A stretch of DNA of 64,000 nt, taken from an uncultured Weeksellaceae bacterium. GTDB taxonomy: Bacteria > Bacteroidota > Bacteroidia > Flavobacteriales > BACL11. Each line of letters begins with the position of its first letter. Position 1 is the first letter of the stretch. The stretch spans positions 38,038-102,037 of the forward strand of contig CAYNGO010000001.1 in NCBI GenBank assembly GCA_964397025.1. Reading direction: 5' to 3'. A model generated the notes under the pieces. The model saw only the letters and a program-made list of their open reading frames with translations, searched no databases and was not told the DNA's origin. The position numbers and the translations under genes were made by a program. Shown piece after piece: positions 7,251-64,000 of the stretch.

Positions 7251-7484
7251 TTAATGTCTTATAATTTCAGATAACCTACTAATTCCTGGATTCGTGTAAA
7301 CTTTACCATCAATAATAAATGTAGGGATAATTCTTTTTCCATTATTAAGCTTTTGGACAATCTCTCCAGCATCTTCATTTTCAGTTATATCAATATACTC
7401 ATAATCAATATATTTTTCATCAAGAAAATTCTTAGCGCTTACGCAAGATGGGCACCATAAGGCGCTGTACATTTTTATTTTCAT
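7251..7484 (-). CDS. Glutaredoxin/NrdH-like small thiol-disulfide protein
   Basis: 77 aa with a WCPSC redox motif near the N-terminus and RIIPTFIIDGK typical of the Grx fold. Its ATG overlaps the upstream stop (ATGA). Confidence 0.7.
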   Translation of the reverse strand: MKIKMYSALWCPSCVSAKNFLDEKYIDYEYIDITENEDAGEIVQKLNNGKRIIPTFIIDGKVYTNPGISRLSEIIRH

Positions 7485-8409: not shown

Positions 8410-8432
8410 AAAGCTAAAATAAACTCTTTTTT

Positions 8433-9827: not shown

Positions 9828-9853
9828 TAATATTTTATTAATTTAATTATCTA

Positions 9854-9861
9854 CAAAATTA
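9854..9861 (-). promoter_or_regulatory. -7 box (TAATTTTG on minus strand) for the decarboxylase operon
   Basis: The plus strand reads CAAAATTA, 27 nt upstream of ATG 9827. Confidence 0.45.
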
Positions 9862-9939
9862 GAAAACATATCTAAAAAAACTGAAGTTATTTCGTATAAA
9901 AAAGTTAAAAAAACCTATAAAATCTATATGTAAATATTG

Positions 9940-9947
9940 TTATCTTT
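9940..9947 (+). promoter_or_regulatory. -7 box TATCTTTG for the LTD/CotH gene
   Basis: Exact TAnnTTTG match 41 nt upstream of ATG 9988. Confidence 0.4.
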
Positions 9948-9987
9948 GCATGTAAATACCTTTAATTAAAATTAAGGCTTTTAAAAA

Positions 9988-13311: not shown

Positions 13312-13314
13312 CCT

Positions 13315-15144
13315 ATGCTTTACTTGTTTCAATATATCATTTCGTTAGAGAGGTTAAAAAACAACATACAGCAAACAATCTTTATTGTTCTTTTTTTTAT
13401 TCCTAGTCTTGTTATTGGCCAGACGATATATAACCCGCAAATTCTATATGATACCCCTGGAGGTTTATATGAAAAAGATTCTTTAAGAGATATTTATATC
13501 AACTTCTATGATCCTAGTTATCATACAATTCTTCAAAACTCTTTTTTCACAAACCCTTCATTTCGAATTCCGGCAAGTATTACTTATTCTCATGATGATG
13601 TGACGTATGATAGTGTTGGGGTTCGGTATAAAGGAAACTCAACGTTCTGTATACCAAATGACAATGGTATTCCTAAAGTGCCATATAATATAGATATGAA
13701 TTATTGGATATCTGGGCAAAAACTATTAGGATATAAAAAAATAAAGCTAGCAAATGCCTGGATGGACGCTACATTCTTAAAAGAATATACGGCTTCTAAA
13801 ATTTACAAAAAATATCTACCTACACCTGAGGTTAGCCTAGCAAAACTACATGTTCAAGGAGATTATTTAGGCCTTTACGTAAATACAGAGTCTATTAATA
13901 AACAATTTGCAAAAAAACATTTTAACGAAAATAATGGAGCTTTAATAAAATGTGATGGTAGCGGCATGTTTTGTGATACCACAGGTACGCCTGTAGGTGG
14001 AGAGCCAGGGCTGAATTGGTACGGAACAGGTGATAGTACCGCATACTTTTCTAGCTATAATCTAAAATCAGATTATGGTTGGAATGAGCTTGTAGATCTA
14101 ATTTACACTCTAAACTTCAATACTAATGAATTAGATTCTATCTTAAATATAGATAGAGTTTTATGGGCTTTTGCTGTAAATACAGTTATTGGTAATTTTG
14201 ACACTTATAACGGTTATTATGTACATAACTATTATTTTTATCAAACTGAAGACGGCTTATTTCAGATGATTCCATGGGATCTAAGTCAAAGCTTTATTAA
14301 TGCACTTCTTGGATGGGATATCTTCACACCTCAAGGCCCTTTACACCCACAGCAATTTGACCCATATTACGGAGATGACCCAAGTCTTAATAGGCCTTTA
14401 GCTTATATTTTATTAAATAATGGAGATTATAGGAAGCAGTATACTGCTCATCTAAGAACAGTTATCAGTGAATTAGACACTAATTTAATTAGAAGCGATG
14501 TGTTAAACATGCAAAGTCTAGCCTACACAGCAGTTGATAGCGACCCCAACAAACTATTTTCTATTTCAGATTATATTACAAATGTTGAGCAAGATATTTC
14601 TTTAGGGCTTTGGGGAGGATATGGTTTTGGAGGAATTATGTCGACTCTTAGATACCGAATTCCATTTTTGCAATCTAATAGCGAAATATCACAGGTGCCA
14701 CCTGATTTATACGGATTAAATATTACTGGCAATATAGTTACTATTAGTGCATCAAATGAAAACTCTGTTGAGTTAATGGCAACACAAAACGAATACAATT
14801 CTAAGTTTAAATCTTTTAACATGTATGATGATGGGACTAATGGAGACGCTCAAGCTAACGATGACGTGTATTCATGCTATATGCCTTTTTCATCAGCTCT
14901 TGAGGTTAAGTTTTATGTAAAAGCAAAAAACTCTCAATCAATCATGTTATTTCCAGAAAGAGCAGAATATGAATTTTACAAATACTCACCTATTTCAGGC
15001 GCAATCGAATCTCCTTTATCAAATGCTAAAGAGCTATTAAACATTACTGATGTATTGGGGAGAAAAGCCGGATTTAGCTATAATAAACCTCTTATATATA
15101 TTTTTACAGATGGCAGTGTTGAGAAGAAAATAATTGTAAAATAA
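13315..15144 (+). CDS. CotH kinase-family protein, secreted, with a short C-terminal sorting-like tag
   Basis: 609 aa with an N-terminal hydrophobic signal. CotH block: KIKLANAWMDATFLKEYTASKIY...LHVQGDYLGLYVNTESINKQFAKKHF. The C-terminus is ...ITDVLGRKAGFSYNKPLIYIFTDGSVEKKIIVK. Confidence 0.75.
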   Translation: MLYLFQYIISLERLKNNIQQTIFIVLFFIPSLVIGQTIYNPQILYDTPGGLYEKDSLRDIYINFYDPSYHTILQNSFFTNPSFRIPASITYSHDDVTYDSVGVRYKGNSTFCIPNDNGIPKVPYNIDMNYWISGQKLLGYKKIKLANAWMDATFLKEYTASKIYKKYLPTPEVSLAKLHVQGDYLGLYVNTESINKQFAKKHFNENNGALIKCDGSGMFCDTTGTPVGGEPGLNWYGTGDSTAYFSSYNLKSDYGWNELVDLIYTLNFNTNELDSILNIDRVLWAFAVNTVIGNFDTYNGYYVHNYYFYQTEDGLFQMIPWDLSQSFINALLGWDIFTPQGPLHPQQFDPYYGDDPSLNRPLAYILLNNGDYRKQYTAHLRTVISELDTNLIRSDVLNMQSLAYTAVDSDPNKLFSISDYITNVEQDISLGLWGGYGFGGIMSTLRYRIPFLQSNSEISQVPPDLYGLNITGNIVTISASNENSVELMATQNEYNSKFKSFNMYDDGTNGDAQANDDVYSCYMPFSSALEVKFYVKAKNSQSIMLFPERAEYEFYKYSPISGAIESPLSNAKELLNITDVLGRKAGFSYNKPLIYIFTDGSVEKKIIVK

Positions 15145-15182
15145 TTAGATTTCCATTCATTGCTTATCTTAAAATCAAAACC

Positions 15183-15190
15183 TATATTTG
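15183..15190 (+). promoter_or_regulatory. -7 box TATATTTG for ileS
   Basis: Exact TAnnTTTG. It overlaps the ORF-track TTG start (15188) and lies 22 nt upstream of ATG 15212. Confidence 0.45.
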
Positions 15191-15211
15191 CACGAATTGG
15201 TAGTAAAAAAT

Positions 15212-18200
15212 ATGAGTAAATTTAAAGAATATAGAGAGTTAAGCCTTCCTTTGATACATAAGGATGTTTTACATTACTGGAAAAAAAACAATATTTTTAA
15301 TCAGAGTATTGAAAATAAAAAAGAATCTAAAAACTTCACTTTTTACGAAGGACCTCCATCTGCAAATGGTATGCCTGGAATTCATCATGTAATTGCGCGA
15401 ACTATAAAGGATCTTTTTTGTAGGTATAAAACCTTAAAGGGTTTTCAAGTTAATCGAAAGGCAGGCTGGGACACACATGGATTACCTGTTGAGCTAGGCG
15501 TAGAAAAAGAACTTGGTTTAACTAAAGAGGATATTGGTAATAAGATTTCTATTGAAGACTACAACAAAGCTTGTCGTGTTAATGTTATGAAATACAAGAA
15601 ATCTTGGGAAAATATAACTGAGGAGATGGGTTATTGGGTTGATATGCAAAATCCATACGTAACATATGATAATAAATATATTGAAAGCGTATGGTGGCTA
15701 CTTAAACAACTTCATGAAAAAAAATTACTTTACAAAGGACACACGATTCAACCATTTTCTCCTAAAGCAGGTACTGGTCTTAGTACACACGAATTAAATC
15801 AGCCAGGGTGTTATAAGAATGTAAAAGACACTTCTGCTGTGGCTCAATTTAAAGTTATTAATGATGAGTTAAGTAATTTTTTATTTTCTAAAACGAAAAA
15901 TGAGGTTTTTTTTATAGCGTGGACAACCACCCCATGGACACTTCCCTCTAACACAGCTCTCGCTGTAGGTAAAAAAATTACATATTTTCTAGTTGAAACA
16001 GTTAATCAATACACTGGGGCCGTAATTTCAATAATTTTAGCAAAAGATCTTTTATCTAATTTCTTTAAAAAAGAAAATGAGAATAAAGAGCGTAAAAATC
16101 ATATTATAGGCAATAAGAGTCTTCCTTATATTATTATTGACAAATTTAGTGGTGGTAGTCTTATTAATATTAAATACGAACAGCTACTAAAATATGCTCA
16201 GCCAGATGATGGTGAGGCTTTTAAGGTTTTAAGTGCCGATTTTGTTACTACAGAAGATGGTACTGGAATTGTTCACTTAGCACCTAGCTTTGGCGCTGAT
16301 GATAGTAGGGTTGCAAAACAAAATGGTATTGGATCTTTAACTTTAGTGGACGAACAAGGAAGGTTTACTAAAGAGGTTACAGATTTTTATGGTCAATATG
16401 TAAAAGAAGAATATTATACTGAAAAAGAGGTCAAGCCAAAACTACCAGCTGATGTTCAGGTGGTTATAAAAATTAAAGAGGAGGGAAATTTATTTAAATC
16501 TGAAAAATACGAACATTCTTATCCTCACTGCTGGAGAACAGATAAGCCTATATTATATTACCCTCTTGACAGTTGGTTTGTAAAAACAACGAGTCATAAA
16601 AAAAGAATGTTAGAATTAAACAAAACTATTAATTGGAAGCCCGCTTCTACTGGAGATGGTCGGTTTGGAAATTGGCTTGAAAACTTGGTAGACTGGAATT
16701 TATCTCGTTCTAGATTTTGGGGCATTCCTCTTCCAATTTGGAGGACTGAAAACGGTGAAGAAGAGGTGTGTATTGGGTCTATAGAAGAGTTAAAAGTAGA
16801 AATTAATAAATCGGTAGCTGCTGGATTTATGATGCAAAATCCTCTAGAGAAGTTTGTAGTTGGAGATTTTTCTGAAGAAAACTATAATGTTTTTGATTTA
16901 CATCGACCATATGTTGATGATATCATACTTGTTTCAAATTCGGGTTTGGCTATGAAAAGAGAGCTAGATTTAATTGATGTTTGGTTTGATTCTGGCTCAA
17001 TGCCCTACGCTCAGCTTCACTATCCATTTGAAAACAAAGAGCTATTTAAAGAAAGTTTTCCGGCAGATTTTATTGCCGAAGGAGTAGATCAAACTAGGGG
17101 GTGGTTTTTTACTCTACACGCTATATCAACTCTTGTTTTTGATTCTGTTGCTTATAAAAATGTAGTTTCAAATGGTTTAGTTTTAGATAAGAGTGGTAAT
17201 AAGATGTCTAAGCGGCTTGGAAATGCAACAGATCCATTTATTACAATAAATAAGTATGGAGCAGATGCAACAAGATGGTATATGATTAGCAATGCTCAGC
17301 CATGGGACAACCTTAAGTTTGATGAAGGAGGGATATTGGAAGTTCAAAGGAAATTCTTTGGCACCCTCTATAATACATATTCGTTCTTTTCACTATATGC
17401 AAATATTGATAATTATAAATATGTCTCTGGAGAGTCAAAAATTAATAACCGGGACAAAACAGATAAATGGATTATCTCAGAGCTAAACTCTCTTATAGAT
17501 GATGTTACAGAAAATTACGAAAGCTATGAGCCAACAAAAGCAGCTAGGCTAATACAGGATTTTGTAGTCAACAAGCTTAGTAACTGGTATATCAGATTAA
17601 ATAGGCGTAGATTTTGGAAGGGAGAGTATAATCTTGATAAAAAAAATGCATATAGTACTCTTTTTGAATGTCTAGAAATAGTTGCTCTTATCTCATGCCC
17701 AATAGCCCCTTTCTTTATGGACAATCTATATCAGGACCTTCACGGCTCTAGTGATTCTATTCATCTTAATGAGTTTCCAAACTCAAATAAAGAGGCGATT
17801 GATATACATTTAGAAGATCAAATGCAAATTGCTCAAAAAATATCATCAAGTATTCTATCGCTTAGAAAAAAAGAGAAGGTGAGGGTTCGTCAACCATTAA
17901 AGACAGCCCTTATCACTTCATCCAAAGAGATAGTAAGACAAAATATTAATGAAATAAAAAATATAATTTTAAGTGAAACTAATTTAAAAAAATTAGAACT
18001 AATTGATGAAGACTCGACATTAGTTTCGAAAAAAGCAAAGCCCAATTTTAAGGTTCTTGGACCTAAATATGGAAAAAAAATTAAAGAAATTTGTCTTGAT
18101 ATTAGCACACTAAACAGTGTTCAAATAAAAAAACTAGAAAAAAACAAAGAGGTGAAGTTAGAAAGTGGTCTATCTGTTTTGCTAGAAGACGTTGATATTA

Positions 18201-18544
18201 TATCTGAAGATATTGAGGGGTACTCTGTTACAAGTAATGATCTTTATAGCGTTGCTTTAGACATTAACATATCAAAAGAACTAAAAGATGAGGGTTTAGC
18301 CAGGGAACTAGTAAATAGAATTCAAAATATCAGAAAAGAAAAAAAATTCTTAGTGACAGATAAAATATGTGTCAATATCCAAAAAAACGAGAGCCTAGAA
18401 AGTGTAATTAAAAATAATTTGGCATATATTTGTAATGAAACACTTGCAAAAGAACTGATTTTCACATCATCGAATAATGATGGTTATGAAAAAATAGAAC
18501 TTATAGATAATATTTTTTGTGAAATTTTAATATTTAAGAGCTAG
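15212..18544 (+). CDS. ileS: Isoleucine--tRNA ligase (type 2)
   Basis: HIGH-type motif PSANGMPGIHH and KMSKS-type motif NKMSKRLGN, about 1110 aa. The start is set to ATG 15212 because the TTG at 15188 lies inside the promoter box. Confidence 0.92.
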   Translation: MSKFKEYRELSLPLIHKDVLHYWKKNNIFNQSIENKKESKNFTFYEGPPSANGMPGIHHVIARTIKDLFCRYKTLKGFQVNRKAGWDTHGLPVELGVEKELGLTKEDIGNKISIEDYNKACRVNVMKYKKSWENITEEMGYWVDMQNPYVTYDNKYIESVWWLLKQLHEKKLLYKGHTIQPFSPKAGTGLSTHELNQPGCYKNVKDTSAVAQFKVINDELSNFLFSKTKNEVFFIAWTTTPWTLPSNTALAVGKKITYFLVETVNQYTGAVISIILAKDLLSNFFKKENENKERKNHIIGNKSLPYIIIDKFSGGSLINIKYEQLLKYAQPDDGEAFKVLSADFVTTEDGTGIVHLAPSFGADDSRVAKQNGIGSLTLVDEQGRFTKEVTDFYGQYVKEEYYTEKEVKPKLPADVQVVIKIKEEGNLFKSEKYEHSYPHCWRTDKPILYYPLDSWFVKTTSHKKRMLELNKTINWKPASTGDGRFGNWLENLVDWNLSRSRFWGIPLPIWRTENGEEEVCIGSIEELKVEINKSVAAGFMMQNPLEKFVVGDFSEENYNVFDLHRPYVDDIILVSNSGLAMKRELDLIDVWFDSGSMPYAQLHYPFENKELFKESFPADFIAEGVDQTRGWFFTLHAISTLVFDSVAYKNVVSNGLVLDKSGNKMSKRLGNATDPFITINKYGADATRWYMISNAQPWDNLKFDEGGILEVQRKFFGTLYNTYSFFSLYANIDNYKYVSGESKINNRDKTDKWIISELNSLIDDVTENYESYEPTKAARLIQDFVVNKLSNWYIRLNRRRFWKGEYNLDKKNAYSTLFECLEIVALISCPIAPFFMDNLYQDLHGSSDSIHLNEFPNSNKEAIDIHLEDQMQIAQKISSSILSLRKKEKVRVRQPLKTALITSSKEIVRQNINEIKNIILSETNLKKLELIDEDSTLVSKKAKPNFKVLGPKYGKKIKEICLDISTLNSVQIKKLEKNKEVKLESGLSVLLEDVDIISEDIEGYSVTSNDLYSVALDINISKELKDEGLARELVNRIQNIRKEKKFLVTDKICVNIQKNESLESVIKNNLAYICNETLAKELIFTSSNNDGYEKIELIDNIFCEILIFKS

Positions 18545-18545
18545 T

Positions 18546-18920
18546 ATGAAAGAAAAAACATCATATACAAAGACAGAACTCAATGAGTTTAGAAAAATTA
18601 TTTTGGAAAAAATTAAAAGTGCCGAAGAAGATTTGTCAATTCTAAGGGCTTCGTGCGCAAATGATTCAGATAATGGCACAGAAGACACTTCTCCCACTTT
18701 TAAAGCTTTTGAAGAGGGCTCTACAACGCTTTCGAAAGAAGAAAATACTAAGCTAGCTGAAAGACAGGCTAAATTTATTTCAAATCTAAACAACGCACTA
18801 ATTAGAATTGAAAATCATTCCTATGGCGTTTGTCGTATTACTGGTAAATTAATATCAAAAGAAAGACTCACATTAGTTCCTCATGCTACTCTAAGCATAG
18901 AGGCCAAAAAAGCTCAATAA
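18546..18920 (+). CDS. DksA/TraR-family protein (Bacteroidota type with a degenerate zinc finger)
   Basis: 124 aa. C-terminal YGVCRITGKLISKERLTLVPHATLSIEAK. Conserved position between ileS and lspA, 1 nt after the ileS stop. Confidence 0.7.
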   Translation: MKEKTSYTKTELNEFRKIILEKIKSAEEDLSILRASCANDSDNGTEDTSPTFKAFEEGSTTLSKEENTKLAERQAKFISNLNNALIRIENHSYGVCRITGKLISKERLTLVPHATLSIEAKKAQ

Positions 18921-46062: not shown

Positions 46063-46136
46063 TCCTCCTTAGCTCAGCTGGTTAGAGCATCTGACTGTTA
46101 ATCAGAGGGTCCTAGGTTCGAGTCCTAGAGGGGGAG
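46063..46136 (+). tRNA. tRNA-Asn (anticodon GUU)
   Basis: 74 nt cloverleaf read by hand. Acceptor stem TCCTCCT/AGGGGGA (one G-U pair). D arm GCTC-AGCTGGTTA-GAGC. Anticodon loop CTGTTAA. T arm CTAGG-TTCGAGT-CCTAG. No encoded CCA. Confidence 0.9.
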
Positions 46137-53694: not shown

Positions 53695-55710
53695 CTACTC
53701 AACAACAAAATTTCTTGTTTCTACAAAGTCAGGCCCATTAAACTTTATAACATATATTCCTTTTGATAAACTAGAAATATCAATACTGTTTGTTCCGTTA
53801 ACTTTTAAGACTTCTTTCCCTTCAATATTTATAATATTTATAAATTCTATGTTATTAGGAATATTATTAACATATAGATTATTATGTGCTGGATTCGGAT
53901 AAACCATTAACTTATCAGGACCATCTAGATAGATAGTTTCAGTAGAACCTGAACAGTTATTACTATACCCTTCATTTACAGCATCAGCAACAGTAGAGGA
54001 AGAAGCATTATCTGTTTTACCTTGAGCATCAAATAACATTCCAACAATATGTATTTTATTAAGATCCCAACTTGGATCTATATCAAACTCAAAACAAACT
54101 GTTTCGTCATCACCAGGACTATAAGAGTTATTTGAAAGAGCATCTCCTAAAAAAGAAGGACTAATAGCTCTTGCAACGTGCCTATAAACCATTAAATAAT
54201 CAGGAACATTTGAGGGCTTTGCATTCCAATCAGTTCCATCAACATCTACTAATGAACTACCTCCACTATAAGAATTTGCTTGATAGTATTGAGGTCCTGT
54301 TCCTGTTACGCTATCTTCAACTATTGTACATGCCATTCTCCATGTTCCATTTACAGGCAATAAAAAATCAATATCTATAGATACTTTTAATTTTGTTCCA
54401 TCAATAACAGCTCCATTATCTAATCTCGCATGAGGAGGAATTATAATTCTTTGTAAAAAATCATCATTGAAAGCTGAAGGATCAATAACTGAACCTCTAT
54501 CTACAATTCCACTTGGATATCCGCTAATATATCCCGCAATACCATTATCATATGTTGCATCAGTCATTAAATCTCCATTATGTACAGCTATTCCTTGCCA
54601 ATATCCTTCATAATCTTGATCCATAAAATTTAAAGCAACAGCACCTCTAGGACACCATCCACACCAAGTTCCTGTTGCTTCTTCACCAACTACTAATTTT
54701 CCTTGTGCAGGAACAACAATATTAAGATTAAGTACTAGAGTATCATCTGAAGTGCTTTGAGCTTGACCTCCGTTAATATTTGATATATATACTTGTGCAT
54801 TTGTAGTAGATGATAAAGTAATAGAATTATTAAAATCAACTGAATATGTTGCCATAGAAGAAAGTGTTAAACCACTTATATTTTCAGTTATTTGAACACC
54901 ATTATAATCATAAGTAACATCAAAAGAATTAATATCATTAAGACCAAAATTACGAACCTCTACAGAAGGATATCTATCTTGCCCTGCTAAACCACCAAGA
55001 GCAGCTGCAGATAATATTTGACCATTTAAAGGATCTAGCTGTGGGGCTATGTAATCAATACATACATCATCAACAAAAAACTCTTGTCCTGCTGTAGGAT
55101 AGTAATCAACTGAAGCTATTTGATTAACTATAGCAGAAAAAGTTCCTTTGGATACTCCATCATGAAAAACTTCCCATGTATTTGTAGAAAGATCAATTAC
55201 TAATTTATTTTCAAACCATTGATTTAAAGGATATGTAGTCATTAAATATGATTGAGCACTTCCTGAAGAAGCATAATTAACACCACCTAATGGATCAAAT
55301 GTAACATCTAAAGCCCAAGTTACTCCTGGGGTGTTTTCTGCTTGTAAATTATAATAAGCACCAGTTGTTATAAATAAATTATGGGTTAGTGTACAAACTC
55401 CAGCTATATATGGTGTTGGAAAACCTGTATTACTTAAAGATATTACAATATCTTCAGGTCCAGCAGCAGCAGGATTAGCATTAAATCCTAAAGAGAAAGA
55501 ACCACTATTAGAATATAAATCTGTTACAAAAGCTTCGTCTGTAAAAGGAGCTGAAACACCATTCATAAGCTCAGCCCAACTATTCCAATTAGGAGATGTT
55601 TGTGCAATAGGATCTCCAGAAACATAACTTTCAAAATCATCACAAAACTGTTGAGAGGAAAGATTTAAAGATATTAAAATAGATAAAAAAGTAAGTAATA
55701 ATTTATTCAT
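53695..55710 (-). CDS. T9SS type A-sorted secreted protein with an N-terminal beta-sandwich-like module and a thioredoxin-like WCGWCP region (possibly Omp28-related)
   Basis: 671 aa with a signal peptide. EEATGTWCGWCPRGAVAL motif. Canonical T9SS CTD: MVYPNPAHNNLYV...LSKGIYVIKF...NFVVE. Confidence 0.6.
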   Translation of the reverse strand: MNKLLLTFLSILISLNLSSQQFCDDFESYVSGDPIAQTSPNWNSWAELMNGVSAPFTDEAFVTDLYSNSGSFSLGFNANPAAAGPEDIVISLSNTGFPTPYIAGVCTLTHNLFITTGAYYNLQAENTPGVTWALDVTFDPLGGVNYASSGSAQSYLMTTYPLNQWFENKLVIDLSTNTWEVFHDGVSKGTFSAIVNQIASVDYYPTAGQEFFVDDVCIDYIAPQLDPLNGQILSAAALGGLAGQDRYPSVEVRNFGLNDINSFDVTYDYNGVQITENISGLTLSSMATYSVDFNNSITLSSTTNAQVYISNINGGQAQSTSDDTLVLNLNIVVPAQGKLVVGEEATGTWCGWCPRGAVALNFMDQDYEGYWQGIAVHNGDLMTDATYDNGIAGYISGYPSGIVDRGSVIDPSAFNDDFLQRIIIPPHARLDNGAVIDGTKLKVSIDIDFLLPVNGTWRMACTIVEDSVTGTGPQYYQANSYSGGSSLVDVDGTDWNAKPSNVPDYLMVYRHVARAISPSFLGDALSNNSYSPGDDETVCFEFDIDPSWDLNKIHIVGMLFDAQGKTDNASSSTVADAVNEGYSNNCSGSTETIYLDGPDKLMVYPNPAHNNLYVNNIPNNIEFINIINIEGKEVLKVNGTNSIDISSLSKGIYVIKFNGPDFVETRNFVVE

Positions 55711-56042
55711 AGTTATGTTATTTATATTTGAATGTGAAAATACAATTTTTTTTGTTTTAAAAATAAAAGAGTAAAAAAAACTATTGTTAGTTATATATAA
55801 TTATATAAATTTTTTTTTAATTTTAAAAAGAAATTAATAATAATATAATGTAGTGTTAATATGGTTAATAAAAAAAAAAGTAATAATTAGGTTTTAATAT
55901 TTACTATATGTTTTTAATAGTTATTAGTATTTATTTTAATTTAAACAAACTGAAAACTAAGATGTTATGTTTTATATTAACAAAAAATAAATATTGTTAA
56001 TAATAGATTTAACAACTTAATTTTAATAAAAAAATATAAGTT

Positions 56043-56050
56043 TATATTTG
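56043..56050 (+). promoter_or_regulatory. -7 box TATATTTG, 194 nt upstream of rpiB
   Basis: Exact TAnnTTTG. It is part of the 12-nt sequence TTTATATTTGAA that also occurs at 55721-55732. Confidence 0.3.
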
Positions 56051-56100
56051 AAAAAGTTAATAATAATAATGAAAAGTTAAATAATAATAATAATAATAAT
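56050..56100. repeat. Imperfect tandem duplication carrying (AAT)4 and (AAT)7 microsatellites
   Basis: GAAAAAGTT(AAT)4 at 56050-56070 is followed by GAAAAGTTA(AAT)7 at 56071-100. It lies just downstream of a TATATTTG box at 56043-56050. Confidence 0.8.
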
Positions 56101-56243
56101 CATTGACTTTTAATTATAAAGAATGCTTAGTATTTAAATTGATTAAGCAATTTTATTTAACCTTTTATTTTAAAGTATTAACAAACTATTTATCAACATA
56201 ATTTAGTTGATTTTAACAATAACTAATAACTAATAATTAAAAA

Positions 56244-56675: not shown

Positions 56676-57709
56676 TGAAAAAAAATATAATTATAATTTT
56701 AAGTTTTTTTATATATAATATATCTTTCTCTCAAAATAATATAAAATTTTCTAATACTATAAATACTAATGATCTCGAAAAACATCTAAAAATATTAGCT
56801 TCAGATTCTCTAGAAGGTAGAGAAACAGGTAAACCTGGTCAAAAAATGGCTGCTCACTATATTGCTAGTCATTTTAAAAATATAGGCATCAAGCCATATA
56901 AAAAAAATACATACCTTCAAAAATTCAAAGTAAAATCAGAAAGACATTTATGTAAATGTGAAGATTGTGATAGTGATTTTCTAAAAGCATTATTTAAAAG
57001 AAAACAAATAATTAAAGGAGAAAATGTTTTAGGATACATTGAAGGAACAGATTTAAAAGAACAGCTAATAATAATTACTGCTCATTATGATCATTTAGGA
57101 AAACATGATTCTTTAATATATAATGGAGCTGATGATGATGGATCAGGAACAGTAGCAGCTATGGAAATAGCAGAAGCATTCAAAATTGCAAAAAATGAAG
57201 GTTTTGGACCTAGAAGAAGCGTTTTAATTATGGCTGTATCTGGAGAAGAAAAAGGATTATTAGGAAGTAAGTATTATACAGATAATCCTATATATCCTCT
57301 AAAAAATACTGTAGCTAATTTAAATATTGATATGATCGGTAGACTTGATGATTGGCACGATACGGCTAACTATGTTTATCTTATAGGATCTGATAGACTT
57401 AGCACAGATTTACACAATATTAGTGAAGAGGTTAATAAAAAATATATTGGTTTAAATTTAGATTATAGATTTAATGAAGAAGACGAGCCTAATAGATACT
57501 ACTATCGTTCTGATCATTATAATTTTGCCAAAAACAATATTCCTGTCATTTTTTATTTTAATGGCGTACATGAGGACTACCACAAGCCAACAGATACTAT
57601 TGAAAAAATAGATTTTAAAAAAATAGAAAAAATAACTAAACTTATTTTTTTAACAGCATGGGAATTAGCCAATCAGCAGGAAAGAATAAAGCTAAATAAA
57701 AACTTATAA
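56675..57709 (+). CDS. M28-family zinc aminopeptidase, secreted
   Basis: 344 aa with a signal peptide. AHYDHLG, DDDGSGT, GEEKGLLGS and DHYNF motifs. GTG start overlapping the rpiB stop. Confidence 0.8.
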   Translation: MKKNIIIILSFFIYNISFSQNNIKFSNTINTNDLEKHLKILASDSLEGRETGKPGQKMAAHYIASHFKNIGIKPYKKNTYLQKFKVKSERHLCKCEDCDSDFLKALFKRKQIIKGENVLGYIEGTDLKEQLIIITAHYDHLGKHDSLIYNGADDDGSGTVAAMEIAEAFKIAKNEGFGPRRSVLIMAVSGEEKGLLGSKYYTDNPIYPLKNTVANLNIDMIGRLDDWHDTANYVYLIGSDRLSTDLHNISEEVNKKYIGLNLDYRFNEEDEPNRYYYRSDHYNFAKNNIPVIFYFNGVHEDYHKPTDTIEKIDFKKIEKITKLIFLTAWELANQQERIKLNKNL

Positions 57710-58384
57710 TTTATCATAAGTATATAGATAAGCGGGCTTATGAGCCACTCCCTCTTGTTTTTCTTTTGTTTTTTTTATAACATCAATTTTAGAAATATTT
57801 TTTCTAAAATTTCTCTTGTCTAATTTTTCATCTAAAAGAATCTCATAAATATATTGAAGTTGAGAAAGTGTAAATTTAGAAGGCAGTAGGTTAGAAATTA
57901 TTTTATGATCAAGTTGAGTTCTTAAATAGCGTAATCCACTTTTAATTATTTCGTTATGATCAAAAGCTAAATTTTTAGGAACCTTCTTTAAACTAACCCA
58001 CTCAGCATCCATTGCAAATGATGAGGCCTGAGGAATATAATCTTCCATTTTTACAAGAGATAAATACCCTACAGTAACAACTCTTTCATTAGGGTTTTTT
58101 CTATATAATTTTAGCCAGGCCTGATCTTTTTTATCTTTAGTTCTTAGGGGATCCCCAAACACTCGAAACTGTTTTAAAAATAAATTGTTTAAAGAGGTTA
58201 AGTTTTTTAATATTCTTTTTGCCCCACAAAGTAAATCTTCATTTTCTTCTAAAAGATCTCCTGGTATTGCATATTGGAATTCTTTACTTTTCCCTATTGA
58301 TTTTTTAATAAGTAATATTTTAAGTTTTTGATCATCATCAAAGCCAAGAATTACACAATCTACGGATAAGTTTATTAGTGACAT
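57704..58384 (-). CDS. Nudix-fold transcriptional regulator (NrtR/AraR-like) with a degenerate Nudix box
   Basis: 226 aa. The Nudix-box position reads GAKRILKNLTSL and lacks the REUXEE glutamates. The C-terminal winged-helix-like region reads FTLSQLQYIYEILLDEKLDKRNFRKNI. Confidence 0.65.
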   Translation of the reverse strand: MSLINLSVDCVILGFDDDQKLKILLIKKSIGKSKEFQYAIPGDLLEENEDLLCGAKRILKNLTSLNNLFLKQFRVFGDPLRTKDKKDQAWLKLYRKNPNERVVTVGYLSLVKMEDYIPQASSFAMDAEWVSLKKVPKNLAFDHNEIIKSGLRYLRTQLDHKIISNLLPSKFTLSQLQYIYEILLDEKLDKRNFRKNISKIDVIKKTKEKQEGVAHKPAYLYTYDKL

Positions 58385-58399
58385 TTTATTTTTTTTAAT

Positions 58400-59671
58400 T
58401 TATTTAACATAAAAAGGAATATTTGCAGTTGCAACATTGTTATAATTATCAGATACATAAACATAAAACCTATACGGGCCAGACCTGCTAGGAGCTTTAA
58501 TACTAATTAATCCTTTTTCTTGTTTTAGTATCTTGTATTTAAGCCCGTCTAGTTTAACCTCAAAATCTCCCCCTGCTTTTTTATCAGTGCTTTCTACCAT
58601 TAATTCATAAGTATATGTTAAAGAGTCTTTTTCAAAATCTATAGCATCAATTAAAAACACACATTCTTTTCTTTTCTTAACTTTTATATTTTCTTTATTA
58701 TTTTTATTATTTAACAAAAATGAATTTAAAATTGGAGCTTTGTTTTTGCTTTTGTTTTTTGCCCAATAAGAATTTAATACATCAACGCTTTCAGTACTTC
58801 TCCCGTCTTCAGTAAAAATACCATACCAGGTTGGAGTTTGTTCTTGCTTGTGACCCCAAAGGAAGGCGTAACTACCAATGCACATTTCTTTATCTTTTTC
58901 TATATGCTTATAACCCTTTAAACGCATTTGTGCTTTCTGAGAACTATTTGACTCAATTGATACGCCCCATGATGTTGTTGGAGATTCCCAGTGGCCATAC
59001 GGCCCCCACTCAGTTACCATATAAGGTTTGTCCCATCCATATTTTCTGATCTGATCAGCCAAAGGACCTATCCCTCCATAAGTGTTTACACCAAGGATAT
59101 CAATACTTGGACAAAACCTTTTTATCATTGAAACCTCAGCCATGTCTATTCCTGCTGTAACAGTCATTGTAGGGTGGTTTGGGTCTAGTTGCTTTATCAG
59201 GGCAGCTATTTCCTCAACAGCATTCCACACTCTAAAATTTGAATAAAATAAATCAACTTCATTTCCAACCGCCCACATTAAAAGAGCTGGGTGGTTTTTA
59301 TATTTTAATATGGCATCTTCAAATCCTTTCAACTGAGCTTTTACAGAGTACTCGTCATTATAATCAAAACCATGTCTTTCATGATTAACCCATAAACCCA
59401 TACATACAGTCAGCCCATGTTTGTGAGCGCTATCTAAAATAGCTTGACCATTTTCTATTCCCCAAGTTCTTATAGAATTACCCCCAACATCAGAGAGCTC
59501 TTTTAAATGTTTGGTTCCTCCAGCACCCTTTACATAGTAAGGATCCCCGTTTCTTAAAAGTTGAAAGCCATTTTCGCTTTTAATTATTTGGGTTGTTTCA
59601 TATTTAGATTGAGAAAAAGAGCTTAATCCAAATAAAAAACAAAAAAACAATATTGTAAATAGAGGTCTCAT
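58400..59671 (-). CDS. Secreted clan GH-A-like (TIM-barrel) glycoside hydrolase with a C-terminal beta-sandwich; family unassigned
   Basis: 423 aa with a signal peptide. Acid/base-type motif LMWAVGNEVD and nucleophile-type motif YMVTEWGPYG about 70 aa later. The last ~100 aa are beta-rich (YRFYVYVSDNYNNVATANIPFYV). Confidence 0.65.
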   Translation of the reverse strand: MRPLFTILFFCFLFGLSSFSQSKYETTQIIKSENGFQLLRNGDPYYVKGAGGTKHLKELSDVGGNSIRTWGIENGQAILDSAHKHGLTVCMGLWVNHERHGFDYNDEYSVKAQLKGFEDAILKYKNHPALLMWAVGNEVDLFYSNFRVWNAVEEIAALIKQLDPNHPTMTVTAGIDMAEVSMIKRFCPSIDILGVNTYGGIGPLADQIRKYGWDKPYMVTEWGPYGHWESPTTSWGVSIESNSSQKAQMRLKGYKHIEKDKEMCIGSYAFLWGHKQEQTPTWYGIFTEDGRSTESVDVLNSYWAKNKSKNKAPILNSFLLNNKNNKENIKVKKRKECVFLIDAIDFEKDSLTYTYELMVESTDKKAGGDFEVKLDGLKYKILKQEKGLISIKAPSRSGPYRFYVYVSDNYNNVATANIPFYVK

Positions 59672-59675
59672 TTTG

Positions 59676-61034
59676 TTATTTAATTACTTCTACTTTATGA
59701 GTATAAACAGAGCCATTAACAGTAGATCTTATTAGATATAAACCTTGATTTAAAGCCTTATATGTTTTATAACTATATGTATTTGGGCTTAGGTTTTTAT
59801 TTATAAAAGTTTCTAAAACGCGGCCATTAATATCAATTAGCTCAATTAAGACAGAAGAGTTCTTAGAAATAGTAAAGGCAATATTTATATCTTCTTTTGC
59901 CGGTATAGGATATGATGATATATCAAATTCAGAACTATTTTCTAAAACAGTAACTGGCGCTGCAGAAAGCCCAAGATCATCTATATAATACTTATCCCAA
60001 TTAACCATGCCTTGATCAAAAAAGAAAACAACCCTGTCAACACTCATTGATCCAGAAGAAACCGAAGATAAATCAAAATTTAATTGCTGCCAAGTGTTGT
60101 TTTGCCAAATCCCTTGCTCAAACCCAATTACTTCGCTTCCATTATTTTGAAAGGATACATACACAGAGGTTGGGGGACCATAAACTTTCATGTTAAAAAA
60201 CGGATATAACCCAACCTCAAAATCGCCATTTAAAGGATAAGCAATAAAAACATCTTCTCCATTGGCGTCAGGATTTCTAGTATATTCACCACAATACTTA
60301 CTATTATTAATTGTGCTGGTTTCGGGGTTATAGACTTGATTAAGCCATCCACTCATATAGTCATAAGACGGGCAGGCAGTGGCAGAAGGACACATTCCTA
60401 GGTTCCAGCTACAATCCCAATCAGCTAAATCTTTTGCAGGGTCGCTTGTAAAACCATCGCACTGGTTGTTAAGCTCCGGACCGTATAAATTATCAAAGTA
60501 ATAAATATCTCCAGTGTTTGTTCCGCCATTGAAAAGTAATATTAACGAAGAAAGTCCAACATCAGACATTGAAGGGTCTGGTTTTGAATCAAAAGTAAGT
60601 ACTATGTTTTCCCATCCATTTGCAACAGTTGTTACGCCAAGATAGATGCTATGTCTCCCCGTAGGGTAGTTGGTGGGGCCGGCTAATGTAGAGTCTTCAA
60701 GTGTAATTTGAACAGGAATACCTGCTGCCGGACTATAAACATCAACGCTCATAGTTTTTGTTCCGTTTACATAATCAGAAACATCCGCCATAGGCCCGTT
60801 AGCAATAATTACAAGCACATCCCAAAGCTCACCCGGGTTTCTTACATACTGGGCGCATGTGCTAGAAGTGTTAACAAAACTAGTCATATCTGGATTTGCA
60901 TATCTTGTTGTCATTCCTCCATGTACAAATTCATAATAACCGATTCGCGTATCCTCAAAATTATCCCACATAACTTGTGAAAACATAAAGTTAGGAAGTA
61001 TAAATAATGCTATTAAAAAAAGATAGTTTTTCAT
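59676..61034 (-). CDS. T9SS type A-sorted secreted protein with two CBM-like beta-sandwich modules
   Basis: 452 aa with a signal peptide. Module brackets WDNFED...YYFDNLYG and CDGFTSD...YYIDDLGL. CTD: SSYPIPAKEDINIAF...LNQGLYLIRS...HKVEVIK. Confidence 0.6.
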   Translation of the reverse strand: MKNYLFLIALFILPNFMFSQVMWDNFEDTRIGYYEFVHGGMTTRYANPDMTSFVNTSSTCAQYVRNPGELWDVLVIIANGPMADVSDYVNGTKTMSVDVYSPAAGIPVQITLEDSTLAGPTNYPTGRHSIYLGVTTVANGWENIVLTFDSKPDPSMSDVGLSSLILLFNGGTNTGDIYYFDNLYGPELNNQCDGFTSDPAKDLADWDCSWNLGMCPSATACPSYDYMSGWLNQVYNPETSTINNSKYCGEYTRNPDANGEDVFIAYPLNGDFEVGLYPFFNMKVYGPPTSVYVSFQNNGSEVIGFEQGIWQNNTWQQLNFDLSSVSSGSMSVDRVVFFFDQGMVNWDKYYIDDLGLSAAPVTVLENSSEFDISSYPIPAKEDINIAFTISKNSSVLIELIDINGRVLETFINKNLSPNTYSYKTYKALNQGLYLIRSTVNGSVYTHKVEVIK

Positions 61035-61038
61035 AATT

Positions 61039-62277
61039 TTAATTTTTAGTTAGTTTAATATTGTCAAGATTTAGCTTTGTTTGATAGGCAAACTCAAACC
61101 TAATTTGCTTGATTTTTGTTAAGTTTATTTTTGATTTTTTTATTGGAAAGCGATAAAGAGGTATAGAAAAAACAGTCCATTTTGGATCATCAGTTGTTTT
61201 TTGCTCACTTATAACATAAGAGCTTTTTACTCCAGAATAATCCTCTAAAGATATTGTAAAAGGCTTCATTTTTTCATTTTTCATTTCAAAATCAAGACTC
61301 AGGTCTTTAATTGAGCGGCTAATATCTGTGTATAGCCAATTATTCCAGCTTATTCCAAACTCTAGCCAGTCACAACTCATAGAGTCTGTGTTTATTTCTA
61401 TAAAAGTGTTGCCATTAGATTTTTTAATACTCAGGTTAGAGCACTTTGGATGGTTAATACCCCAGCTTGAAATCAAGGAGTCTTCAAAAATTGTAATTGG
61501 ACCAATTGAATCAAAAACCGTTAAGTTGTCCTCAAGCCTCTTATACTTATTTTCGTGTTTAACAATCTTTATCTCGTCAATATAAACATCTGTTGCGTCA
61601 TAGCACTGCATTAATAGCTGCTTAACATTTGTAAGATTTATTTTGTTTTTCAAATAAGAAAAACTTTGTAGGGGCACAGTAACCTTTGTCCAGGAGGTTG
61701 TTATTTCTCCCCCTTCAATTCCAAGGTAATTAGCCGTTGCATAGCATTGATTTTCAGAGTAATCTTCTAAAATAAAAACAACAGGAAGGTTTGTTATAGA
61801 CCCTTTATCAACTCTAATTAAAAACTCAATTGCAGACTTTGTCATTATTCCACTCATGTCTTTGCCCTGCCACCCATCCCATCCAATCCCCATTCCAATC
61901 CATTCACAAGATGGTTTTTTTGTTGTTTTTAAATGAATTGAATTTTTAATGATTTTTTTTCTGTCTTTTATTTTAACTGTAGGAAGTTTGAATTTACTGT
62001 AAAATTCATCAAGCTCTTGCTCGTTCTTTTTTTCAAGTCCAGACTCTTGTTTTAAAGAATAATCAATGCTAGCATCAAAAGAAGAGAAACTAAATGGGTT
62101 GCAGTTTTCATCATCCATTCCCCAGACCTCATCACTTCCTCCTTTACTAAATATTTCTGTAGAGGTAAATCCATTTATCCCTTCAGTATTTTCTATTTCT
62201 ATATCATATAGAGTAAGCTTGTCCATGTTTTTACATGAACATAAAAAAACAAATATGATAATAAACACTCTATACAT
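61039..62277 (-). CDS. Lipoprotein with two internally duplicated CBM-like modules
   Basis: 412 aa. Lipobox FVFLCSC. Paired motifs: CEWIGMGIGWDGW/CDWLEFGISWNNW, ILEDYSENQ/SLEDYSGVK, WTKVTVPLQSF/WTVFSIPLYRF, KINLTNVKQL/KINLTKIKQI. Confidence 0.6.
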   Translation of the reverse strand: MYRVFIIIFVFLCSCKNMDKLTLYDIEIENTEGINGFTSTEIFSKGGSDEVWGMDDENCNPFSFSSFDASIDYSLKQESGLEKKNEQELDEFYSKFKLPTVKIKDRKKIIKNSIHLKTTKKPSCEWIGMGIGWDGWQGKDMSGIMTKSAIEFLIRVDKGSITNLPVVFILEDYSENQCYATANYLGIEGGEITTSWTKVTVPLQSFSYLKNKINLTNVKQLLMQCYDATDVYIDEIKIVKHENKYKRLEDNLTVFDSIGPITIFEDSLISSWGINHPKCSNLSIKKSNGNTFIEINTDSMSCDWLEFGISWNNWLYTDISRSIKDLSLDFEMKNEKMKPFTISLEDYSGVKSSYVISEQKTTDDPKWTVFSIPLYRFPIKKSKINLTKIKQIRFEFAYQTKLNLDNIKLTKN

Positions 62278-62278
62278 T

Positions 62279-63289
62279 TTATTGTTCCAGTATTGGGCTT
62301 CCCTCGCTCCAAATTAGATAATCAACATCAGCCTTGGCAAAACCAGAAGTTGGATTAGCCAAGAGAAGAGTTCTTATTTTAATTATTTTATTAGGCTCTC
62401 TTATTGCATTTCCCCCTGTACCACCACCACTTGGGTCTGTTGCTAATATTAAGTCACTATACCTTATAGATATCATTTTCCATCCATTCCAATCAACATG
62501 AAACTCATAGTCAAGCCTGTCTTCGTTATTTGGGTTATAATAATCATCTTGATTCTCATCTTCATAAAACTCAAGCTTAAAAAGGGAATTAGCCTCATTT
62601 GTAGGAGACAGAGTGCTGTCGCCATAAATCATCATGTTAAAAAAAACATTGTCAGGATCAGCGCTTAACACTCCTTGCTGAAGCCAATGGGATGTGGGGT
62701 AGTCTATATATCCGATTAGCCAATCCCAATCACACGTTCCCTCTTGAGACAGATATCTTTCTTTTTGACCAGCCCCACCTGTTTCTATACTCTTTGAACA
62801 GGTTGTTTGAAAAAAGCTAGTAAAATTAGGATTAAAACCACTCTCAAAATCACTTATCAAAAGCTCTTGCCCATTTCCATAGGTTTTTGAAGAAACAATA
62901 TTTAATGTTTTAAAAATAGAATCGTTATGGTTGGAAAAAGAGAGCACAACAGAGCAGTTTTCTACTTGAAAAAAAGGAAGAGTAGTTACCCCTCCGTTCC
63001 AAGAGCTGTTTTCTTCATTAATAGAATTGGATTTGCCAGATATTACTTTTGTTGATCCAGAATTTTGGCCAACTATACTAATGCTCCAGTCTACAATTTT
63101 AGAAAAAGATGCGGTGAAAAAAAGATTTTCATTATTACTAAAGTCAGTAGAATCCCCAATAACTTCAAGGCCTTGAACAATAGTTAGGTCCCCATATAAA
63201 TCATTTAAATTTGGCCCTTCTATCCCCTCTTTTTCACAAGAGATAAAGAAAAGCGCTAAAAAAGGTATTATAATTTTAATTGTTTTCAT
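62279..63289 (-). CDS. Lipoprotein with a C-terminal CBM-like module
   Basis: 336 aa. Lipobox LFFISCE. Module bracket ISDFESGF...CDWDWLIGY...VDWNGWKMISIRYSDL...DVDYLIW. Confidence 0.55.
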   Translation of the reverse strand: MKTIKIIIPFLALFFISCEKEGIEGPNLNDLYGDLTIVQGLEVIGDSTDFSNNENLFFTASFSKIVDWSISIVGQNSGSTKVISGKSNSINEENSSWNGGVTTLPFFQVENCSVVLSFSNHNDSIFKTLNIVSSKTYGNGQELLISDFESGFNPNFTSFFQTTCSKSIETGGAGQKERYLSQEGTCDWDWLIGYIDYPTSHWLQQGVLSADPDNVFFNMMIYGDSTLSPTNEANSLFKLEFYEDENQDDYYNPNNEDRLDYEFHVDWNGWKMISIRYSDLILATDPSGGGTGGNAIREPNKIIKIRTLLLANPTSGFAKADVDYLIWSEGSPILEQ

Positions 63290-63291
63290 TT

Positions 63292-64000
63292 TTATAAATT
63301 CATATTAAACATAAAGTAAACTCTTGATAATGATAGCCTGTTAATATCATTGATTTTATCTGTAATTTCAATTTTATTTGTTTGTAGACTGAAATAAATA
63401 TCGTTAGTAAAATTGTATTGTAACCCAATTAGCATAATGCTTTCTTGGGAATCGTAATTGTATAGGTCATAGCCAATTATTTCGTCATAATTATTTCTTT
63501 CAGTTCCAACCTCATTTCCTTTTCCAACAAAAGACTTAAGGCCAGCAATTAGCTTAAGATTTTTAAATAGCTCATAGCTTGCCCCGGCAGAAACTAATGA
63601 AGAATTAAAGTTAATTGATTCAAGCTCATAACCTCCTCTTCTAACATTTTCGGAATTAAAGCTAAACTCAGCTGTTGTTTTGTTTTTTAGATTAAGAAGC
63701 TCATCAACCTTTACTAAGACATTTGCTCCTCCTGCAAAAAAAGATCTTTTCTCAAAGGTTCCTTGCCCTATAACCTCATTAAAAAAACCAAAATCTCCCT
63801 TTGCCGTTATCGTTTTGCTATTATCGTAGCTAAAAGAATACTTAAGCCCATTTCTGTTTGGAGTTGACTCTCCATAAGGTGAGACCGCACTATATAGCGG
63901 ATTGTAATTCATTAGTGATGTAGAAAGACGTTGATTATAGATATTAGGGTCTGTTGTTATGTCTAATAAGCTTACGGGTCTTAAAATAGTATTGTTAGTA
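63292..64000 (-). CDS. Outer-membrane beta-barrel-like protein, C-terminal part (the gene continues beyond the window edge)
   Basis: The frame is open from 63912 to position 64000 (…TNNTILRPVSLLDITTDPNIYNQRLSTSLMNYNPLY…), so the ORF-track Met is internal. It shows an alternating hydrophobic beta-strand pattern and ends ...RVYFMFNMNL. Confidence 0.45.
   Translation of the reverse strand, partial: TNNTILRPVSLLDITTDPNIYNQRLSTSLMNYNPLYSAVSPYGESTPNRNGLKYSFSYDNSKTITAKGDFGFFNEVIGQGTFEKRSFFAGGANVLVKVDELLNLKNKTTAEFSFNSENVRRGGYELESINFNSSLVSAGASYELFKNLKLIAGLKSFVGKGNEVGTERNNYDEIIGYDLYNYDSQESIMLIGLQYNFTNDIYFSLQTNKIEITDKINDINRLSLSRVYFMFNMNL

Follow-up and report, generated by a model that had tools for sequence, protein, structure and literature searches.

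The final part of a 64,000-nucleotide stretch of DNA (the window; GenBank assembly GCA_964397025.1, contig CAYNGO010000001.1, positions 38,038 to 102,037 of the forward strand) from an uncultured Weeksellaceae bacterium (GTDB lineage Flavobacteriales; BACL11) carries six closely packed genes, which encode the end of a predicted outer-membrane beta-barrel, two lipoproteins, a secreted protein, a glycoside hydrolase (GH) and a regulator (Table 1). The array is part of a locus that probably serves the use of beta-1,3-glucan (laminarin) by this low-G+C marine bacterium, and in which an uncharacterised, widely conserved outer-membrane core stands in place of the SusC/SusD pair. An earlier note, made from the letters of the window, had described the six minus-strand genes, and its coordinates and intergenic gaps were reproduced exactly by an open reading frame (ORF) scan; from the regulator to the barrel the gaps are 15, 4, 4, 1 and 2 nt. 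The G+C content of the region is about 30%, and since stop codons are frequent in AT-rich DNA, long ORFs (226-452 codons) in one tight array are very unlikely to have arisen by chance. Homologs of all six genes are found elsewhere with the same order kept.

Table 1. Genes of the array at the end of the window (positions are those of the window).
Feature	Coordinates	Strand	Basis or remark
C-terminal 235 codons of the 569-aa predicted barrel (OMP569)	63292..64000	minus	frame open to window edge (base 63999)
336-aa lipoprotein (LP336 family)	62279..63289	minus	ORF scan
412-aa lipoprotein (LP412), two predicted tandem CBM30-like modules	61039..62277	minus	ORF scan, Pfam
452-aa secreted protein, type IX secretion system type-A C-terminal sorting domain	59676..61034	minus	ORF scan, Pfam, NCBIfam
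423-aa predicted GH158 beta-1,3-glucanase	58400..59671	minus	PDB sequence matches
226-aa predicted NrtR/AraR-type regulator	57704..58384	minus	Pfam

An exact-protein look-up found the 336-aa protein on 14 contigs, and six independent contigs carry it in identical form. The tail of the window is 99.3-99.5% identical in DNA sequence to contigs L001 and L002 across 11.7 kb, and these contigs therefore legitimately extend the locus. In the extended contigs, the genes located 5' of the cut barrel follow one another at distances of 0-4 nt and code for a large protein with repeated carbohydrate-binding modules (CBM) and a sorting domain of the type IX secretion system (T9SS), a GH16 enzyme, a GH3 lipoprotein and a barrel of 657 residues (OMP657). 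The operon thus comprises at least 11 genes, of which the window holds the 3' part, in the order T9SS CBM-repeat protein, GH16, GH3, OMP657, OMP569, LP336, LP412, 452-aa protein, GH158 and regulator, and this order is identical in every near-identical contig long enough to show it. The GH16 and GH3 enzymes were identified by Pfam matches and, together with GH158, make up the three glycoside hydrolases of the operon; carbohydrate-active enzymes, CBM proteins and an NrtR-type regulator are thereby gathered in one tight array. The six-gene unit with a single enzyme that the earlier note had proposed is consequently too small, as GH16, GH3, the large T9SS CBM-repeat protein and a second, paralogous barrel also belong to it, and its label of a surface glycan-type operon does not fit if synthesis was meant, the content being purely catabolic: glycoside hydrolases and binding modules, joined in relatives by a sugar symporter. 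In contig L005, 99% identical in other respects, the 452-aa T9SS gene (3309-4819) and an M28 peptidase gene (6789-7580) are each split or truncated, by either assembly error or strain-level gene decay.

The 423-aa protein is predicted to be a GH158 beta-1,3-glucanase with a TIM barrel and a C-terminal immunoglobulin-like domain, which confirms a likeness that the earlier note had pointed out. It matches the GH158(Pro) structure 9oro in the PDB with an E-value of 3.6e-98 over residues 27-422 of 423, and the Bacteroides uniformis enzyme BuGH158 (6pal) with 1.9e-68; the PDB alignment extends through the C-terminal domain. The motifs GNE (residues 136-138) and TEWG (220-223) place N137/E138, as acid/base, and E221, as nucleophile, in register with the equivalent motifs, GNE and TE(W/F)G, in 9oro and 6pal, so that both catalytic glutamates are present. 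The corresponding residues of BuGH158, N136/E137 and E220, are essential according to mutation (PMC7157763), and 9oro is a processive beta-1,3-glucanase (PMC13195107). BuGH158 is a surface lipoprotein, whereas the enzyme of the window has a type-I signal peptide and lacks both a lipobox and a T9SS tail; it is therefore more likely to operate in the periplasm than, like the Bacteroides enzyme, at the surface.

The 226-aa protein, read as a Nudix-type regulator from the start, contains the Pfam domains NrtR_WHD (7e-24, 84.2 bits against a cut-off of 27), AraR_C (2.6e-9, 37.6 against 23.8) and NUDIX (4.2e-6, 27.2 against 21.1), and matches the NCBIfam model TransRepNtr with 4.3e-29 and 101.7 bits, below its equivalog cut-off of 400 bits. 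It is predicted to combine a Nudix-fold sensor with a winged-helix DNA-binding domain, as in the NrtR/AraR type of regulators. Its Nudix-box region reads GDLLEENEDLLCGAKRILKNL and is degenerate, lacking the glutamates of the REUXEE motif, which fits a sensory and not a catalytic role. The NrtR and Bacteroides AraR proteins share this sensor and winged-helix architecture; however, these regulators are tied to NAD or arabinose genes, while the regulator of the window is tied to a beta-glucan locus. An NrtR-type regulator is also linked to the barrel core in distant relatives. The regulator gene closes the operon and runs 6 nt into the convergent M28 peptidase gene.

The 336-aa and 412-aa proteins, named as lipoproteins in the earlier note, both possess lipoprotein signal peptides (…FFISC-EKEG and …VFLCSC-KNMD, respectively). 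The 412-aa lipoprotein matches Pfam CBM30 in two stretches (1.3e-16, 61.4 bits against a cut-off of 27) and weakly SGBP_B_XBD, and its internal duplication is detected with an E-value of 1e-15. A CBM30 match is present in 24 of 25 members of the LP412 family and a CBM9 match in 8 of 25, and the profile of the family finds the CBM30 structures 2c24 (4.3e-6) and 1wmx (1.3e-5) in the PDB. The protein is thus predicted to consist of two tandem CBM30-like jelly-roll modules and is a candidate surface glycan-binding protein. The CBM30 family is described as binding beta-1,4-glucans; that the modules bind beta-1,3-glucan here is suggested by their genomic context.

The 336-aa lipoprotein has no Pfam or NCBIfam match. 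Its lipobox Cys18 is followed by acidic residues, and the motif GPxLxDLYGxF is conserved; a signal peptide with this cysteine is found in all 45 listed LP336 homologs except one (L058), whose ORF start looks miscalled. The acidic residues after the cysteine of the LP336 family (C-E-K-E…) fit the export-signal consensus of Bacteroidota surface lipoproteins, and the LP412 family is less acidic. The 336-aa lipoprotein is probably exposed at the cell surface. Profile searches gave marginal hints to CBM11, CIA30 and SGBP_B_XBD, consistent with a CBM11/CIA30-like C-terminal module, but neither the PDB nor Pfam yielded a fold for the family. No significant similarity emerged when the profiles of the lipoprotein families were compared with one another.

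The 452-aa protein carries the T9SS sorting domain ascribed to it in that first reading, with Por_Secre_tail in Pfam (6.7e-7, 30 bits against 27) and TIGR04183 in NCBIfam (29.4 against 23) both above their cut-offs. The profile of its family matches T9SS sorting domains only (8glk and 8glj) in the PDB. Its two N-terminal modules are related to each other (internal repeat E-value of 3e-5), and profile searches of the PDB and Pfam gave no family or fold for these passenger modules. The gene is kept in the marine clade, and its product is a candidate binder attached to the cell surface. The GH16 enzyme and the CBM-repeat protein encoded upstream carry a T9SS sorting domain as well. Of the at least five CBM-like beta-sandwich modules counted by the earlier note in the three middle proteins, the two CBM30-like modules of the 412-aa lipoprotein stand, while those of the 452-aa protein match no family and the 336-aa lipoprotein offers marginal hints. 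A further module of about 100 residues with the motif EVNGxFNxW, which scores as CBM48, X25 or AMPK1_CBM, is repeated in the first two genes of the extended locus (L001, 34-2529 and 2533-3996), with at least four copies in the large T9SS protein and one at the C-terminus of GH16. These families are of starch- or glycogen-binding types, and the presence of the module in a beta-glucan locus suggests an undescribed specificity.

The part of OMP569 within the window ends with …FMFNMNL and holds the signature of its family, PYGxATPNRxG (here PYGESTPNRNG), and the complete 569-aa gene is seen in the near-identical contigs. Neither OMP569 nor OMP657 has a Pfam match at E-values up to 10 or an NCBIfam match at E-values up to 1, and the profiles of both families recover no solved structure by sequence in the PDB, except for a marginal hit to OprF (E-value of 0.0013). 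AlphaFold2, run on the family alignments, predicts beta-barrels with about 21 assigned strands, in which the strands have a predicted local distance difference test (pLDDT) score of 70-87 and the mean is 57 for OMP569 and 49 for OMP657. The open-ended protein that had been described as beta-barrel-like is thus modelled at full length as a barrel. In OMP569 the first strand (residues 29-38) directly follows the signal peptide, which argues that this barrel has no N-terminal plug domain, and the family consensus begins with the strand-like sequence KVxFxGxGR. In OMP657 a conserved extension of about 25 residues precedes the first strand. Foldseek matched the barrel model to generic large barrels, with MtrB the best at a template modelling (TM) score of 0.39, followed by TonB-dependent transporters at about 0.33 and then LptD and BcsC. 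The most conserved residues, including FRSxGAQTxR and PYGxATPNRxG, are located in two long non-strand inserts (residues 110-165 and 309-382). The two families align to each other in hhalign over 450 columns with an E-value of 5e-5 and a probability of 67%, and the two barrels are distant paralogs.

Known barrel families were considered for these proteins. A match to the Toluene_X/FadL family (E-value of 0.0083, 15.1 bits against a cut-off of 29.7) covers the last 60 residues or so only and was rejected. A role of PorP/PorV type in T9SS is unlikely, given the difference in size and the lack of T9SS cargo in the vicinity of distant cassettes. The sugar porin families LamB, OprB, ChiP and KdgM gave no Pfam or NCBIfam match to the barrels, and in Foldseek only generic barrels appeared.

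The non-SusD architecture proposed in the earlier note is supported by the extended contigs, and comparative genomics shows it to be a conserved system and not a single case. Upstream extension of the locus, one of the checks that had been suggested, revealed no SusC/SusD pair: no SusC gene was found among the 11 genes of the extended locus, nor at distances of up to 10 kb in distant relatives, and no SusD family of Pfam appears in any locus table, the genes that follow the barrel being the 336-aa protein without a family match and the double-CBM30 protein. In contig L025 the genes upstream of the locus encode further T9SS proteins, and not SusCD. Neither barrel matched Plug, TonB_dep_Rec (Pfam, E-values up to 10) or TIGR04056 (NCBIfam, E-values up to 1). 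The C-terminus of the barrel had been noted as unlike that of a TonB-dependent receptor, a judgement in line with these negative matches and with the position of the first strand.

OMP657, OMP569, LP336 and LP412 constitute a conserved four-gene core. A scan of one genome per GTDB species identified 21 loci, all in metagenome-assembled genomes (MAGs) or single-cell genomes of uncultured marine Flavobacteriales, and all 21 share one gene order between the T9SS CBM protein and the regulator. Six independent assemblies and the 21 genomes show it as a continuous series, in which neighbouring genes between GH16 and the regulator are 0-60 nt apart. One of the 21, MAG Z_MB_123_1 (L015), is assigned to genus UWMA-0277 of family BACL11 and has a genome of 1.5 Mb with 32% G+C (PMC10108472 supplement). 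The barrel of a BACL11-classified relative is 51% identical to that of the window.

An exhaustive HMMER search of 1.84 billion representatives, clustered at 50% identity, found 409 OMP569 clusters at E-values up to 1e-3 and 176 at E-values up to 1e-30, nearly all with a length of about 570 residues. Metagenome contigs were also scanned with a degenerate DNA pattern for PYGxATPNRxG, which gave at least 120 matches; among the matches listed, 120 of 120 encode members of the family. Synteny was counted in 68 clusters of less than 70% identity drawn from these listed matches. OMP657 is encoded immediately upstream of OMP569 in 53 of 56 diverged clusters, an LP336 homolog immediately downstream in 55 of 58, and an LP412 homolog at the second position downstream in 34 of 48. 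In 30 of 53 clusters the stop codon of OMP657 shares 1 nt with the start codon of OMP569, and 46 of 53 have a gap of at most 15 nt. This overlap suggests translational coupling and a complex of fixed stoichiometry.

Relatives of the barrel at 28-34% identity occur in MAGs labelled Bacteroidota or Bacteroidia, where they are annotated as 'hypothetical protein'; the cluster look-up also returned Flavobacteriales. A homolog search with the divergent profile was dominated by the marine clade and did not widen the taxonomic range. The distant relatives keep an arrangement of NrtR, a GH158-like gene, an SSF symporter, two barrels, a lipoprotein and a CBM lipoprotein. Pfam analysis of 109 same-strand neighbours from the diverged clusters, again among the matches listed, assigned 12 to GH3, 12 to GH2_C/GH158-like, 10 to GH16, 9 to T9SS tails, 6 to NrtR/AraR and 5 to SSF; sulfatases (4), GH30 (3), MFS (3) and GH5 (2) are rarer, and GH97, GH31, fucosidase and GH18 have a single occurrence each. 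The 25 neighbour families listed include no TonB receptor, Plug or SusD family. From this census, the core is a module of glycan catabolism that chiefly concerns beta-glucans; other substrates are probably the target of some variants, such as the sulfatase-flanked one in L152. There (3830-18664), the two-barrel and two-lipoprotein core and a GH2_C/GH158-like enzyme lie between flanking genes for three sulfatases, an FGE-sulfatase enzyme and beta-helix proteins, and the locus looks like a variant for a sulfated glycan.

Several other variations were observed around the core. An SSF gene lies inside the locus in the BACL11-type L015 (4011-5687) and in the distant relatives L149 (6372-8009) and L151 (6419-8050); in distant relatives it is directly upstream of the first barrel, and it is absent from the locus in the lineage of the window. 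A third small lipoprotein-like gene of about 265-290 codons, without a Pfam match, often occupies the third position after the barrel in metagenome loci (L136, L050, L034, L143, L055, L056, L095 and L149, 14032-14841), where the marine clade has the 452-aa T9SS protein. Contigs of high G+C content (52-62%; L029, 4964-11072; L107, 1400-7451; L113, 1698-6976; L044/L101) encode tandem barrels of 700-800 residues that match the OMP569 profile weakly (E-values of 1e-22 to 1e-35). These are followed by two lipoproteins of 225-286 residues in L029 and L107, by a single one of 285 residues in L113, and by proteins of 328 and 349 residues in L044/L101. The two-barrel architecture may extend beyond the Bacteroidota.

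The closest characterised system is the 1,3GUL locus of B. uniformis, which consists of a SusC-like TonB-dependent transporter, a SusD-like SGBP-A, SGBP-B, GH16, GH158 and GH3 (PMC7157763). Both loci combine a GH16 endo-glucanase, a GH158 endo-beta-1,3-glucanase, a GH3 exo-glucosidase and non-catalytic surface glycan-binding proteins, which in the window locus are candidates, and they share the predicted class of substrate. However, the window locus lacks a SusC-like transporter and SusD, in the place of which two unannotated barrels and two lipoproteins are encoded, and several of its surface proteins are T9SS-anchored rather than lipid-anchored. The polysaccharide utilisation locus (PUL) for laminarin of Formosa agariphila contains SusCD, GH16_3, GH17, GH30_1, GH149, GH158 and BguR (bioRxiv 10.64898/2026.01.10.698779; variants in PMC6794258). 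The window locus resembles such marine flavobacterial PULs in its Flavobacteriales host group, its probable laminarin target and its GH16, GH3 and GH158 content, but in the lineage of the window there is no SusCD, BguR-type membrane regulator, GH17 or GH30.

Channels for oligosaccharides that work independently of TonB and are encoded beside matching catabolic genes are known in LamB (maltoporin), ChiP, CymA, KdgM and OprB, and the same is proposed here. Unlike these, the barrels of the window have no detected similarity to a known family (no Pfam match), form a paralogous pair with two lipoproteins and occur in Bacteroidota. Sugar porins are also much smaller than the predicted barrels with their 21-22 or so strands and 570-660 residues. 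Large barrels are paired with lipoproteins in LptD-LptE and MtrB-MtrA/C, to which the weak structural matches lead and with which the genetic pairing here may be compared. Those systems serve lipopolysaccharide insertion and electron transfer, respectively, whereas the context of the window is glycan catabolism and there is no sequence similarity. In the searchable literature, outside which most subscription journals lie, no description of the barrel pair or the four-gene core was found, apart from passing remarks on laminarin loci without SusCD. Non-canonical PULs without susC/D have been called neglected (PMC6794258), and a laminarin locus without susCD has been reported for the NS4 clade (MAG W_MB115; PMC10108472), the identity of which with the present cassette could not be confirmed.

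We lean, by a modest degree, towards the view that the barrel pair and the two lipoproteins form an import device that is independent of SusCD and probably also of TonB, as suggested by their position, conservation and predicted topology. This view is favoured because passage of the outer membrane is the only step without an assigned protein, and the barrels, located where SusC/SusD would be, are the only genes without an assignment that are conserved universally. In the scheme that we infer, binding proteins attached through T9SS or a lipid anchor would capture laminarin at the cell surface, and GH16 would cut it. The fragments would then pass the outer membrane by way of the paralogous pair of plug-less barrels, which are probably present in equal amounts and in complex with the two lipoproteins encoded directly after them. 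In the periplasm, GH158, which is closest to a processive beta-1,3-glucanase, and GH3 would reduce the fragments to glucose or short oligosaccharides, and a symporter may take up these sugars; the SSF gene lies in the locus of relatives and not in that of this lineage. The NrtR/AraR-like regulator would sense a ligand derived from the sugars and control the operon. The distinct capture system that the earlier note had envisaged, mixing lipoprotein- and T9SS-anchored binders with one enzyme, thus holds as a non-SusD system with GH158, and differs in having three hydrolases and two barrels.

It is unlikely, though a reading of some weight, that the barrels are instead scaffolds, each of which holds one lipoprotein or exports it to the surface in the manner of LptD-LptE or MtrB-MtrA/MtrC, with import left to an unlinked TonB-dependent transporter. 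The near-invariant, tightly coupled order of two barrels followed by two lipoproteins, seen also with two small lipoproteins in high-G+C relatives, would suit such a role, as would the presence of MtrB and LptD among the best Foldseek matches and of SusC-like transporters for other substrates in related clades. However, the structural similarity is only at the level of any large barrel, and the locus would then lack a passage through the outer membrane despite encoding surface binding and cutting, periplasmic enzymes and, in relatives, an SSF symporter. Moreover, many surface lipoproteins of Bacteroidota are not known to need, for their export, a dedicated barrel encoded beside each of them. 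Less probable again is an energised and gated transporter in which the conserved inserts act as the plug, an analogue or very remote derivative of the TonB-dependent transporters. The number of strands (about 21-22) is near the 22 of these transporters, TdfH and OprC are among the Foldseek matches (TM score of about 0.33), both inserts could fold into the lumen, and the extension of OMP657 before its first strand is conserved. Against this, the plug and receptor models went unmatched, no segment resembling a TonB box was recognised, the first strand of OMP569 is preceded by no N-terminal domain, and neither barrel matches any solved TonB-dependent transporter in sequence.

Synthesis or remodelling of a cell-surface beta-glucan, with the barrels as export channels of the AlgE, BcsC or PgaA kind, is very improbable: BcsC is among the Foldseek matches and many proteins of the locus are anchored at the surface, but no glycosyltransferase, synthase, flippase or polymerase occurs in any locus examined, and the core is surrounded by genes for hydrolases, binding modules, sugar symporters and a regulator of sugar type. 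It is hardly credible that this is an ordinary SusCD locus of which SusC/SusD lie just outside the assembled region or were lost by misassembly. The window ends inside the barrel gene and would on its own be insufficient to judge, but the order is uninterrupted in all the assemblies and genomes compared, further T9SS proteins follow upstream in L025, and SusCD is lacking around the core of distant relatives.

Several points weigh against the import device that we favour. Passage of glycans through the barrels is a presumption, the models being of low mean pLDDT and their Foldseek matches, at TM scores of 0.39 or less, generic; the most conserved residues fall in two poorly modelled inserts, which may lie within the barrel lumen or elsewhere. 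The searches placed the modules of the 336-aa and 452-aa proteins in no carbohydrate-binding fold, and the presumed surface exposure of the lipoproteins follows an export-signal consensus. In the NS4 clade, SusC-like proteins directed at other glycans are expressed (PMC8319329), and an unlinked TonB-dependent transporter elsewhere in the genome may carry out import.

Outside the operon, the window contains two adjacent plus-strand genes for CotH-kinase-like proteins (9988-13311 and 13315-15144), the first of which, 1107 aa long, combines this with LTD, CHB_HEX_C, Fn3_assoc and PKD domains and ends in a CHU_C type-B T9SS tail. The minus strand (53695-55710) encodes a protein of 671 aa that has an Omp28 domain and, for T9SS, a sorting tail; in close relatives it is conserved on the far side of the M28 peptidase and RpiB genes next to the locus. 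The intergenic region between the divergent Omp28-T9SS and rpiB-like genes (55711-56243) has a G+C content of about 20%, compared with about 30% nearby, and is probably a shared promoter region. A tRNA gene on the plus strand (46063-46136) is the only Rfam match in the window.

More broadly, and as a tentative proposal held with slightly less than even confidence, the core may represent a second, undescribed class of outer-membrane machine for glycan uptake in Bacteroidota, in which two paralogous plug-less barrels and two dedicated lipoproteins replace SusC/SusD. It would import laminarin fragments independently of TonB and be the main laminarin route in abundant, streamlined marine flavobacteria (BACL11-type and possibly NS4-type), with diverged versions for other glycans, as in L152, and in other phyla, as in the high-G+C tandem barrels. 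Glycan uptake in Bacteroidota is equated with SusC/SusD, and PUL surveys, SusC/D trees and expression proxies based on TonB-dependent transporters are built on this pair. Surveys that rely on the detection of SusCD would miss loci of the type found here, a caution also given in PMC6794258, and a conserved SusCD-free laminarin locus would mean that laminarin consumers are under-counted. The signature PYGxATPNRxG, given that all the listed metagenome matches to it are family members, is a specific marker for tracing the system in metagenomes and metatranscriptomes. The two barrels and the 336-aa lipoprotein, all 'hypothetical proteins' without a Pfam or NCBIfam model, are concrete candidates for a new mechanism of glycan transport, and the locus offers a test of whether the 'selfish' uptake of large oligosaccharides needs SusCD.

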